From a virus (Duplodnaviria > Heunggongvirae > Uroviricota > Caudoviricetes), in the IMG/VR virus record IMGVR_UViG_2636416166_000011: a stretch of 15,548 nucleotides of DNA; one strand, written 5' to 3'. Of this stretch, positions 12,420 to 15,308 are shown piece by piece (the first letter of the stretch is position 1; each line of letters starts with the position of its first letter). Made by a program: the position numbers and the translations under genes. The notes below the pieces were generated by a model that had not been told where the DNA came from, ran no database searches, and worked only from the letters and a program-made list of their open reading frames with translations.

Positions 12420-12564
12420 AATATCCCCCTGCCCTTACGTTTCCTGCTCCTTCACGCCGCAACCGGATATAACTACATCCGCCGTCATCAGGAGTAATAC
12501 GATCCACGCTGAAAGACTCCCGGCCAATCATCAGCGAATCATTGCGACACAGCTGTAAAATATC
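12406..12564 (-). pseudogene. FII: Head-tail joining protein FII, 3' fragment (last 52 codons), truncated by IS66 insertion
   Basis: Minus-strand frame entering from the IS66 boundary reads DILQLCRNDSLMIGRESFSVDRITPDDGGCSYIRLRREGAGNVRAGGYYEGA*; compare my recollection of the lambda gpFII C-terminus ...RQLRRGDTLTIGEENFWVDRVSPDDGGSCHLWL.... Stop overlaps the Z start. No start codon; the frame is cut by the IS66 left end. Confidence 0.6.
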
Positions 12565-12589
12565 GTAAGCGTAAACTGACCGCCGTATG
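12565..12589. repeat. IS66-family left terminal inverted repeat
   Basis: GTAAGCGTAAACTGACCGCCGTATG, matches the right end in inverted orientation. Confidence 0.7.
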
Positions 12590-12650
12590 TAGCCATTAAG
12601 CCTGTATTGGTAACGTAGGTGCCCACCTTTTCAACTAGTGGACACCTGTT

Positions 12651-13070
12651 ATGGAACAGAAAGCATTATCTGCAGAACCCCGCAGATCATTTTCAAATGA
12701 GTTTAAACTTCAAATGGTTAAACTGGCTTCACAACCAGGAGCCTCTGTTGCCCGTATTGCCCGGGAACACGATATCAATGATAACCTGCTGTTTAAATGG
12801 CTCAGGCTCTGGCAGAACGAAGGGCGCATATCGCGGCGTCTTCCGGTAACAACCTCTTCTGACACTGGCGTTGAATTATTACCTGTGGAGATAACGCCGG
12901 ATGAGCCGAAAGAACCTGTGGCTGGTCTTACTCCGTCTTTATCTACTCAGACTACAGTTAGTGCCAGCTCCTGCAAGGTGGAGTTCCGTCACGGTAACAT
13001 GACGCTGGAAAATCCTTCACCAGAGCTGCTCACAGTGTTGATCCGTGAACTGACCGGGAGGGGACGATGA
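12651..13070 (+). CDS. IS66-family accessory protein TnpA (orf1), 139 aa
   Basis: First ORF of the element (MEQKALSAEPRRSFSNEFKLQMVKLASQPGASVARIAREHDINDNLLFKWL..., helix-turn-helix-like N-terminus); stop overlaps the orfB start (ATGA). Confidence 0.8.
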   Translation: MEQKALSAEPRRSFSNEFKLQMVKLASQPGASVARIAREHDINDNLLFKWLRLWQNEGRISRRLPVTTSSDTGVELLPVEITPDEPKEPVAGLTPSLSTQTTVSASSCKVEFRHGNMTLENPSPELLTVLIRELTGRGR

Positions 13071-13417
13071 TCTCACTCCCGTCAGGCACCCGCATCTGGC
13101 TCGTTGCTGGGATAACCGATATGCGTAAGTCTTTCAACGGGCTGGGTGAACAGGTACAGCATGTGCTGAATGATAATCCCTTCTCCGGTCACCTGTTCAT
13201 CTTCCGTGGCCGACGGGGTGACATGATTAAAATCCTGTGGGCTGATGCTGATGGTCTGTGCCTGTTCACCAGACGCCTGGAGGAAGGCCAGTTTATCTGG
13301 CCTGCTGTGCGTGACGGCAAGGTATCCATTACCCGCTCGCAACTGGCAATGCTCCTCGATAAGCTGGACTGGCGTCAGCCAAAAACATCCCGCCTTAATG
13401 CACTGACAATGTTGTAA
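13067..13417 (+). CDS. IS66-family TnpB (orf2), 116 aa
   Basis: MISLPSGTRIWLVAGITDMRKSFNGLGEQVQHVLNDNPFSGHLFIFRGRRGDMIKILWADADGLCLF... is the characteristic IS66 Orf2 sequence; translationally coupled to orfA. Confidence 0.85.
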   Translation: MISLPSGTRIWLVAGITDMRKSFNGLGEQVQHVLNDNPFSGHLFIFRGRRGDMIKILWADADGLCLFTRRLEEGQFIWPAVRDGKVSITRSQLAMLLDKLDWRQPKTSRLNALTML

Positions 13418-13447
13418 AAATGTCATGGCCGGATTATAAAAACGGCC

Positions 13448-15040
13448 ATGAATCAAAAATACCTCATTCGCATTGCAGAACTGGAATGCCAGCTCCGTCA
13501 GAAAGACCAGCAACTGAGTCTGGTTGAAGAGACGGAGGCCTTCCTGCGCTCTGCACTGGCCCGCGCCGAAGAAAAGATCGAAGAAGATGAACGGGAAATA
13601 GAACATCTGCGGGCTCAGATAGAAAAACTGCGCCGGATGCTGTTCGGTACCCGTTCTGAAAAACTGCGTCGTGAAGTTGAACAGGCTGAGGCCCTGCTGA
13701 AACAACGCGAACAGGACAGTGATCGTTACAGTGGGCGGGAAGACGATCCGCAGGTTCCCCGCCAGTTGCGACAGTCTCGTCATCGTCGCCCGTTACCGGA
13801 GCATCTGCCCCGCGAAATAAATCGCCTGGAGCCAGAAGAAAGCTGTTGCCCGGAGTGTGGCGGTGAGCTGGATTATCTGGGGGAAGTCAGCGCAGAACAA
13901 CTGGAACTGGTGAGCAGCGCTCTGAAAGTGATCCGCACAGAACGGGTAAAAAAAGCCTGTACAAAATGTGACTGCATCGTTGAAGCACCGGCACCATCCC
14001 GTCCGATAGAGCGTGGTATCGCGGGCCCGGGGTTACTTGCCCGCGTGTTAACGGGAAAATACTGCGAACACCTGCCACTGTATCGTCAGAGTGAAATTTT
14101 TGCCCGTCAGGGTGTCGAACTGAGCCGTGCATTACTCTCCAACTTGGTTGACGCGTGCTGCCAGTTAATGACGCCGCTGAATGATGCTCTGTACCGTTAT
14201 GTAATGAACAGCCGCAAAGTTCACACTGATGACACACCAGTAAAAGTGCTGGCACCGGGCAGGAAGAAGGCGAAAACAGGATATATCTGGACGTATGTCC
14301 GGGATGACAGGAATGCCGGTTCGCCAGAGCCTCCGGCGGTCTGGTTCGCCTACTCACCGGACCATCAGGGTAAACATCCGGAGCAGCACCTTAGTCCCTT
14401 CCGGGGTATCCTGCAGGCAGATGCGTTTAATGGTTACGATCGGCTGTTCAGTGCCGAACGAGAAGGCGGCGCGTTGACGGAAGCAGGATGCTGGGCTCAT
14501 GCGCGGCGCAAAGTCCACGATGTATATATCAGTACCAAAAGCGCGACAGCGGAAGAAGCCCTGAAACTAATCGGTGAGCTGTACGCCATCGAGCACGAAA
14601 TACGCGGGTTGCCGGTGTCTGAACGCCTGGCGGTCAGGCAAATGCAGAGTAAACCGCTACTGACTTCCCTGTATAAGCTGATGCAGGAGAAAGAACACAC
14701 GTTATCGAAAAAATGCCGTCTGAGAGATGCGTTCCGGTATATCAGGAAGCACTGGGTTGCGTTGTGCAACTTCAGTGATGATGGTCTGGCTGAGGCGGAT
14801 AATAATGCCGCGGAAAGAGCGCTTCGTGCAGTCTGTCTCGGAAAGAAAAACTTTATGTTCTTCGGCAGCGATCACGGTGGAGAGCGTGGTGCGCTACTGT
14901 ACGGGCTGATCGGCACCTGCCGACTGAACGGTATCGATCCGGAAGCGTATCTGCGCTATATCCTGAGCGTACTGCCGGAATGGCCTTCCAACCGTGTTGA
15001 CGAACTCCTGCCATGGAACGTAGCACTCACCAATAAATAA
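13448..15040 (+). CDS. IS66-family transposase TnpC (orf3), 530 aa
   Basis: N-terminal coiled-coil/leucine-zipper region, zinc-ribbon CPECGGEL...CTKCDC, then DDE-type catalytic core (…HTDDTPVKVL…YIWTYV…, …DAFNGYD…, …CWAHARRKV…); ends just before the right inverted repeat. Confidence 0.85.
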   Translation: MNQKYLIRIAELECQLRQKDQQLSLVEETEAFLRSALARAEEKIEEDEREIEHLRAQIEKLRRMLFGTRSEKLRREVEQAEALLKQREQDSDRYSGREDDPQVPRQLRQSRHRRPLPEHLPREINRLEPEESCCPECGGELDYLGEVSAEQLELVSSALKVIRTERVKKACTKCDCIVEAPAPSRPIERGIAGPGLLARVLTGKYCEHLPLYRQSEIFARQGVELSRALLSNLVDACCQLMTPLNDALYRYVMNSRKVHTDDTPVKVLAPGRKKAKTGYIWTYVRDDRNAGSPEPPAVWFAYSPDHQGKHPEQHLSPFRGILQADAFNGYDRLFSAEREGGALTEAGCWAHARRKVHDVYISTKSATAEEALKLIGELYAIEHEIRGLPVSERLAVRQMQSKPLLTSLYKLMQEKEHTLSKKCRLRDAFRYIRKHWVALCNFSDDGLAEADNNAAERALRAVCLGKKNFMFFGSDHGGERGALLYGLIGTCRLNGIDPEAYLRYILSVLPEWPSNRVDELLPWNVALTNK

Positions 15041-15045
15041 GCGTC

Positions 15046-15070
15046 AATACGGTGCTCCGTTGACGCTTAC
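15046..15070. repeat. IS66-family right terminal inverted repeat
   Basis: Reverse complement GTAAGCGTCAACGGAGCACCGTATT; begins 6 nt after the orfC stop. Confidence 0.7.
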
Positions 15071-15308
15071 GAAACTGCTGGGATAACAGCCCAATGGAAC
15101 GCTTCTTCAGGAGTCTGAAGAACGAATGGATGCCGGTGGTGGGTTACGTAAGCTTCAGCGAGGCAGCTCACGCCATAACGGACTATATCGTTGGATATTA
15201 CAGCGCACTAAGACCGCACGAATATAACGGTGGGTTACCCCCAAACGAATCGGAAAATCGATACTGGAAAAACTCTAACTCGGTGGCCAGTTTTTGTTGA
15301 CCACTTCA
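15071..15308 (+). mobile_element. IS3-family (IS911-like) element, right-end fragment only (about 238 bp), cut on its left by IS66
   Basis: Contains the C-terminal 75 codons of an IS3-family OrfB transposase and ends with a terminal inverted repeat whose reverse complement at 15308 reads TGAAGTGGTCAACAAAAACTGGCCACCGAG, which I recall as the IS911 terminal repeat. IS3-family ends are 5'-TG...CA-3'. Confidence 0.65.
15073..15300 (+). pseudogene. IS3-family transposase OrfB, C-terminal fragment (5'-truncated)
   Basis: In-frame translation from 15073: [75 protein letters not shown]. The DN..ME.FF..LK.E motif carries the third catalytic glutamate of IS3-family DDE transposases. No start or upstream catalytic region (interrupted by the IS66 right end at 15070). 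Confidence 0.7.

Follow-up and report, generated by a model that had tools for sequence, protein, structure and literature searches.

An IS66-family element without target-site duplication at a deletion scar joining a lambda-like prophage to IS911-interrupted uxaB in Shigella boydii

Insertion sequences (IS) of the IS66 family duplicate 8 bp of the target into which they transpose. How, then, does an apparently intact copy come to stand between two unrelated 8-mers, one lying in a phage gene and the other inside a different insertion sequence? The question is raised by IMG/VR record IMGVR_UViG_2636416166_000011 (Caudoviricetes), a stretch of 15,548 nt that is referred to here, at its full length, as the window, and in which an IS66-family element separates the truncated head-tail joining gene (FII) of a degraded lambda-like prophage from a remnant of IS911 lodged in uxaB. 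Here we trace this arrangement to Shigella boydii, where it appears as the scar of a deletion fixed in one lineage and was probably generated by recombination between two IS66 copies in direct orientation.

The IS66 copy and its missing duplication

The element, its genes and the bases that adjoin it are as follows.

12565..15070, + strand: IS66-family insertion sequence, 2506 bp, apparently intact, with tnpA, tnpB and tnpC
12651..13070, + strand: tnpA, 139 aa (PF01527; NF047595, IS66-like TnpA)
13067..13417, + strand: tnpB, 116 aa (PF05717; NF033819)
13448..15040, + strand: tnpC, DDE transposase, 530 aa (PF13007, PF13005, PF03050, PF13817; NF033517)
12565..12588, + strand: left terminal inverted repeat (GTAAGCGTAAACTGACCGCCGTAT), from a repeat search
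15047..15070, + strand: right terminal inverted repeat (...CGTTGACGCTTAC), from a repeat search
12557..12564, no strand: left flanking 8-mer AAAATATC, from reading of the sequence, flank extraction and comparison with FII
15071..15078, no strand: right flanking 8-mer GAAACTGC, equal to nt 1012-1019 of IS911, from reading of the sequence, flank extraction and comparison with IS911

The two flanking 8-mers agree at only four of eight positions, so no 8-bp duplication surrounds the window copy, just as the first-pass annotation of this DNA had stated. The element itself, read from the sequence between 12300 and 15548, starts with GTAAGCGTAAAC... and finishes with ...GTTGACGCTTAC, its termini being GTAAGCG...CGCTTAC. 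Whether these are its true ends was judged on sibling copies, defined as copies in public assemblies that encode an identical TnpC or TnpB, from which the bases outside the same terminal 25-mers were extracted; roughly 70 loci were fetched for inspection of flanks and junctions. The ends are identical across all siblings, and perfect 8-bp direct repeats lie directly outside them at nine distinct insertion sites (TACTGAGA, TTTTATTC, GACGGAAG, GCAGCCAG, GACGTACC, TTTTTATC, AGATGTTG, CCCCTTCG and GAATGTCG). The ends of the window copy are therefore correctly placed and 8 bp is the rule for this element, to which the window copy is a real exception. The 8-bp target duplication typical of the IS66 family is thus absent from the window copy and present at its siblings, and its absence reflects the history of this copy, not its family membership.

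That nothing unusual took place here, the ends being misplaced, a duplication having decayed or the assembly having gone astray across a repeated IS, can be given practically no credence. An inverted-repeat search does run two bases past the proposed ends, detecting a 26-nt pair (12563-12588 and 15047-15072) that is 85% complementary with two flank bases included. The outermost TC/GA of this pair is, however, chance complementarity of the flanks, because sibling copies carry other bases there, and the nine duplicated sites place the boundaries exactly where they were drawn at first. A decayed duplication is contradicted by flanks whose homology, to two unrelated sequences, extends as far as the ends of the element, and a misassembly by the recurrence of identical junctions in the independent assemblies described below.

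All three genes belong to the IS66 family, confirming the earlier assignment, with scores that exceed the curated NCBIfam cut-offs: 444.6 bits for TnpC against NF033517 (cut-off 180), 86.9 bits for TnpA against NF047595 (cut-off 74) and 119.5 bits for TnpB against NF033819 (cut-off 50). In Pfam, TnpC shows the leucine-zipper, zinc-finger, DDE_Tnp_IS66 and C-terminal domains, with an E-value of 8e-95 for PF03050. The open reading frame (ORF) list places tnpA and tnpB, which overlap by 4 nt, upstream of tnpC, and the terminal inverted repeats begin with GTAA(GCG), as in the family at large. The Escherichia coli members IS679, ISEc8, ISEc23 and ISEc43, reportedly described by Han et al. in J Bacteriol in 2001, are said to share a tnpA-tnpB-tnpC order, a length of ~2.5 kb, GTAAGCG ends and an 8-bp duplication; the window element is like them in gene layout, size and end sequence. 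Its DNA is 88-93% identical to E. coli copies labelled ISEc23 or ISEc43, the nearest RefSeq-labelled element being ISEc43-like (~93% DNA identity over the region aligned in that match). A few E. coli genomes contain copies ~99% identical to it, annotated simply as "IS66 family".

The element is multicopy and near-identical between copies, occupying at least five places within single chromosomes, and three further sites likewise lack a clean duplication. Two of these, L003/L061 and L005, carry unrelated 8-mers; at the third, L060, the left 8-mer recurs three bases past the right end (GTTTATCC at 1991-1998 on the left, GCC and then GTTTATCC at 4505-4515 on the right), so that the duplication is displaced by three bases. 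A multicopy IS with three such sites indicates that rearrangement at its copies is common in these genomes. At L003 (5090-5117) and L061 (1971-1998), the left flank is IS911 (nt ~45-64) and the right flank prophage DNA; this is a second, independent junction of IS66 within IS911 with chimeric flanks. Another pair of loci, L004/L007, in which IS66 abuts a truncated IS3-family gene, was considered as the missing half of the window's joint and excluded, as it has its own perfect duplication, TACTGAGA. Three IS66 copies could not be scored owing to an IS110-family element within the right end. In all three (L006, L058 and L059, at positions ~7611-7623 or 4492-4504) it occupies the identical position in the right inverted repeat (...GTTGACGCTGAT, then ATGACTTT), which suggests that the IS110-family element targets the IS66 end site-specifically.

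Two flanks from unrelated targets, and the genomes that share them

What the element separates can be stated from the features on its two sides.

367..12419, - strand: tail module of a degraded lambda-like prophage, from lom, J (frameshifted), I, K, L, M, H, T, G, V and U to Z (ORF list; Pfam labels of identical S. boydii genes)
12406..12564, - strand: 3' fragment of FII, the head-tail joining gene, 52 codons and a stop; the N-terminal ~71 codons are absent
15071..15308, + strand: last 238 bp of IS911, with the C-terminal part of orfB and the right inverted repeat, nt 1-1011 missing (identity to full copies; rve_3, transpos_IS3)
15309..15548, - strand: first 240 nt (80 codons) of uxaB (tagaturonate reductase), the ORF being closed by a TGA from the IS911 end (15306-15308)

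On the left, the window is collinear to base 12564 with the intact 123-aa FII gene (PF05354) of a Shigella flexneri 8401 prophage (L039; 92% identical), which continues after AAAATATC with TGCTGTTTTCAC where the window enters the IS. The 52-aa fragment corresponds to the C-terminal part of 123-aa PF05354 proteins, ~47 of its 52 residues being identical by eye; it gave no match in a Pfam search on its own, being too short, and its stop overlaps the start of the tail gene Z (PF06763). On the right, 15071-15308 corresponds to nt 1012-1249 of full IS911 copies (starting TGAAGTGGCACACTGAATTTGGCCACC) with 99.6-100% identity over 238 bp, contains the IS911 right inverted repeat (...GGCCAGTTTTTGTTGACCACTTCA) and hits the IS3 transposase model at its C-terminal end; in intact IS911, GAGCCGGCGCG stands before GAAACTGC, at the place taken in the window by the IS66 end. 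Both flanks thus meet the ends of the element with no base extra or missing relative to intact FII and IS911, and these are therefore true transposition junctions in unrelated targets, which bears out the earlier description of the flanks as chimeric.

Both junctions are present in every one of 20+ independent assemblies examined, long-read complete chromosomes included, so that they cannot be an assembly artefact. Apart from one substitution, in the right 8-mer of a single assembly, the two 8-mers are the same throughout. Between the window and the assemblies compared, the sequence is collinear and 99.8-99.97% identical over up to 14.1 kb. Exact matches to Z, U, Lom and the truncated UxaB come from S. 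boydii, including strain Sb227 (CP000036.1), and from many other assemblies, and for ORFs specific to the junction the source names read S. boydii, except for one labelled S. flexneri. The complete junction was absent from 5426 complete E. coli genomes searched; two E. coli matches (H1 and H28) that seemed to run from IS66 into an IS3-family fragment proved to come from other elements, located elsewhere. The joint is a genuine and old one that has become fixed in one lineage of S. boydii.

Several features of the flanks deserve mention in their own right. The gene uxaB, in a way that the first-pass annotation had not seen, is itself truncated to its first 240 nt, the point at which IS911 interrupts it; moving away from the joint, its neighbours in S. 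boydii genomes are dgcF, yneG, glsB, sad, yneJ, yneK, ydeA and the mar genes. The insertion of IS911 in uxaB is itself without target duplication, as seen in the sister genomes introduced below, in which the left side of IS911 abuts uxaB nt 490 and 249 bp of uxaB are gone (L044, reverse-complemented 8755-10003). The right end of IS911 (TGACCACTTCA, window 15298-15312) closely resembles the uxaB sequence that it replaced (TGACCGCTTCC).

In the prophage, J (1034-4512, - strand) is split by a 1-bp deletion near 2363 into ORFs at 1034-2290 and 2347-4512, and measures 1149-1159 aa in the three S. boydii relatives compared; the split marks either a pseudogene or a homopolymer sequencing error. The tail end of the prophage in S. 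boydii genomes runs into ipaH, IS1, ydfI, ydfZ, ydfH, ydfG and dcp. The ipaH effector gene, with leucine-rich repeat (LRR) and NEL E3 ligase domains, lies just left of the window start (L029, 12585-14336), at the tail-fibre end of the prophage remnant and adjoining IS1 and ydfI. FII is also interrupted in an unrelated draft assembly (L043, 7294-7561; GCA_039058775.1), whose FII gene is 99% identical to that of S. flexneri; there it is IS1 that cuts the gene, after ...VKTA, one codon from the IS66 cut of the window. For annotators, the 80-codon uxaB ORF, the 68-aa IS911 ORF and the FII fragment are best treated as pseudogene remnants.

A sister genome type and the topology of the loss

A look-up with the 80-aa UxaB fragment divides the genomes into two types, of which type B is that of the window and type A a sister type, represented by CP026866.1, CP026762.1, CP026814.1 and CP026797.1 (loci L044-L046 and L048; S. 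boydii by source name). The junction between uxaB and the right end of IS911 is common to both. From marB through uxaB nt 240 and IS911 nt 1249-1012 the two types are 99.8% identical, up to the very base at which type B enters IS66. Beyond that base, type A carries the remainder of IS911, uxaB from nt 490, yneE, tam, a truncated IS4 and the 3' part of a DUF4376 gene, and ends in ipaH, IS1 and ydfI, where it is again 99.7% identical to type B. The uxaB-side DNA that type B has lost (IS911 nt 1-1011, the 3' part of uxaB, yneE and tam) is retained in type A between the same outer landmarks.

Since type A keeps a block between the two flanks of the window, the window type is a deletion with IS66 at its scar. 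Measured against type A, the uxaB-side loss in type B amounts to at least 3.8 kb; towards the prophage, ~0.2 kb of FII is gone together with, we infer, a further length of prophage, and the prophage-head side of the lost block is retained in no relative found. Comparison with this more complete uxaB locus supports the earlier proposal that intervening prophage and IS911 DNA was deleted, and extends it: the loss also took the 3' part of uxaB, yneE and tam, which the first-pass annotation had not seen. The AAAATATC|IS66|GAAACTGC junctions can accordingly serve as a lineage marker that separates the two S. boydii genome types.

Type A has a scar of its own (L044, 14320-15541). There, an IS4 copy starts at the first tam codons and breaks off after ~1.2 kb, where its reading frame carries on into the 3' part of the prophage DUF4376 gene to give a 536-aa chimeric ORF; the entire tail module is missing.

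Could the joint instead be the product of a rearrangement without loss, namely a tandem duplication, a re-integrated circle or serial inversions through IS66, with the missing DNA residing elsewhere in the genome? Shigella genomes are highly rearranged (PMC8072062), and the order of genes in E. coli lends this idea some appeal. E. coli 120899 has the arrangement prophage, ydfJ', ydfI...dcp...eamA...mar...uxaB, yneE, tam, lsr. Set against it, the window connects FII, which is downstream, with uxaB, which is upstream, and does so in direct orientation, the topology of a duplication or a circle. This topology was rejected, however, as type A shows that a swap of blocks predates the joint. In types A and B alike (L029, L044 and L064), the mar...uxaB(...tam) block lies upstream of the ydfJ-site prophage and ydfI...dcp. 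The block swap predates both types, because type A has the same block order through a different scar (tam, truncated IS4, DUF4376 3' part), and relative to such an ancestor the window is a plain deletion. An older exchange of two adjacent blocks, common to both S. boydii types and read here from gene order, thus accounts for the duplication-like appearance of the joint; had the type of rearrangement been judged only by the gene order of E. coli, the conclusion would have been mistaken. The most economical reading is a common ancestor with the order uxaB::IS911, yneE, tam, whatever DNA came next, the prophage (heads...FII-Z...DUF4376-ipaH), IS1 and ydfI, followed by one deletion in each type.

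The search for the missing DNA also speaks against its relocation. By exact look-up, a 312-aa ORF from the 3' part of uxaB occurs on only 23 contigs, as against 576 for the common 80-aa UxaB fragment, which favours loss; for Z, 553 index blocks of the collection were returned. Reading of the 23 contigs showed every one to be either type A or a 3-kb draft contig that ends at the flanking IS elements, so that by this exact-protein look-up the ORF was found in no complete genome of type B. The first-pass annotation had suggested that the reciprocal 8-mers might be found at other IS66 copies. Such reciprocal junctions (the right inverted repeat followed by AAAATATC, or GAAACTGC followed by the left inverted repeat) were seen neither in the fetched loci nor, by pattern scan, in viral contigs; a scan of species-representative genomes was also empty, but the window's own left junction, which served as control, was absent there too, which shows that this lineage is missing from the collection and makes that scan uninformative. 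A reciprocal junction is not expected in any case, because a deletion would leave none. Taken with the type A block order, these results make a rearrangement joint very improbable.

Origin of the scar and comparison with known systems

A deletion fixed in one S. boydii lineage by recombination between two direct IS66 copies is, in our judgement, the probable origin of this locus. The ancestor would already have carried IS911 in uxaB, with a lambda-like prophage downstream of uxaB, yneE and tam, its head genes facing tam and its tail, ipaH, IS1 and ydfI end facing away. Two IS66 copies in the same orientation would then have been present, one in FII, duplicating AAAATATC, and one in IS911, duplicating GAAACTGC. 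Homologous recombination by the host between these copies, presumably involving RecA, would have produced a single hybrid copy bearing the outer 8-mer of each parent, while the intervening DNA would have been excised as a circle and subsequently lost. The lost stretch would have reached from IS911 nt 1-1011 through the 3' part of uxaB, yneE, tam and whatever followed to the ~71 5' codons of FII, and one intact IS66 copy would have been left exactly at the joint. The sequence as it stands agrees with this outcome: a single IS occupies the joint, and its flanks derive from different original targets, each precise at the IS end in alignments to intact FII and IS911.

Certain observations weigh against this account. 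A two-copy progenitor, with AAAATATC twice and GAAACTGC twice, was absent among the ~70 loci fetched, and because IS66 flanked on both sides by AAAATATC in FII, or by GAAACTGC in the uxaB IS911, was seen in no genome, the progenitor is hypothetical. A homology search with full-length FII likewise returned no N-terminal FII fragment ending ...DIL beside an IS66 end. That the lost DNA is absent elsewhere was judged by look-ups of exact protein sequences, and type A has its own, different deletion on the prophage head side. The same final sequence would, moreover, result from intramolecular transposition of a single copy. Apart from these points, the only N-terminal FII fragment found, P0016, was set aside as it is cut by IS1, not IS66, in an unrelated draft assembly.

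Transposition from a single copy merits separate consideration. A lone IS66, in FII or in IS911, may have attacked a second site on the same chromosome, and an intramolecular event of replicative type would then have deleted the adjacent DNA, keeping one old flank, gaining one new target flank and leaving no duplication. The precise junctions and unrelated 8-mers seen here are what this predicts; it needs one prior insertion, not two, and would fit with the failure to find a two-copy progenitor. Adjacent deletions are typical of replicative elements such as IS1, IS26, Tn3 and Mu. To our knowledge no such deletion has been shown for an IS66-family element, and the chemistry by which this family transposes is not settled. 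The S. boydii scar is like those left by IS1, IS26, Tn3 and Mu in that the IS is kept at the deletion point with one old and one new flank and no duplication; unlike in those cases, nothing in it requires an adjacent deletion. Many identical IS66 copies within a recombination-proficient host offer ready substrates for the other route, and the only IS66 deletion to have been analysed experimentally needed two copies and was attributed to homologous recombination (PMC6778807). We therefore regard an adjacent deletion as unlikely, though clearly less so than a rearrangement joint. Were it true, these genomes would provide evidence for a replicative or one-ended strand-transfer pathway in the IS66 family that produces adjacent deletions. 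Of the two mechanisms put forward in the first-pass annotation, recombination between copies and adjacent deletion, the shared element of a deletion with IS66 at the scar holds; recombination is favoured, and the final structure does not distinguish it from the alternative.

The closest parallel to recombination between two copies is found in Agrobacterium tumefaciens 15955. On its At megaplasmid, pAt15955, a pair of IS66 copies in direct orientation, both bordered by an 8-bp duplication of their own, gave rise to a single copy with the two outer 8-mers and the loss of 270 kb (PMC6778807). That deletion required both copies, in that the removal of one abolished it (PMC6778807). As in Agrobacterium, the S. 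boydii scar holds one IS66-family element whose differing 8-bp flanks come from different insertions, and its siblings are duplicated; unlike in Agrobacterium, where the two-copy progenitor exists, the progenitor is not sampled here, and a different member of the family is involved, in S. boydii as host.

IS-driven genome reduction and rearrangement in Shigella was reportedly treated by Yang et al. in Nucleic Acids Res in 2005. IS66 is among the IS families specific to some Shigella lineages, and recombination between direct repeats is restated in the introduction of the same study as a general rule leading to deletions (PMC8072062). As far as could be checked, the deletion spanning uxaB, yneE, tam and the prophage is not described in those surveys. 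The locus thus adds one IS-bounded gene loss (the 3' part of uxaB, yneE, tam and the prophage head and early genes) to the reductive evolution of S. boydii, a contribution of small significance beyond bookkeeping. In its IS-dense surroundings, its pseudogenes and its IS-bounded deletions, the locus resembles the IS-driven reduction described for Shigella (PMC8072062). As an IS-mediated deletion in a Shigella genome rich in such elements, the scar is ordinary and of a type that is already documented.

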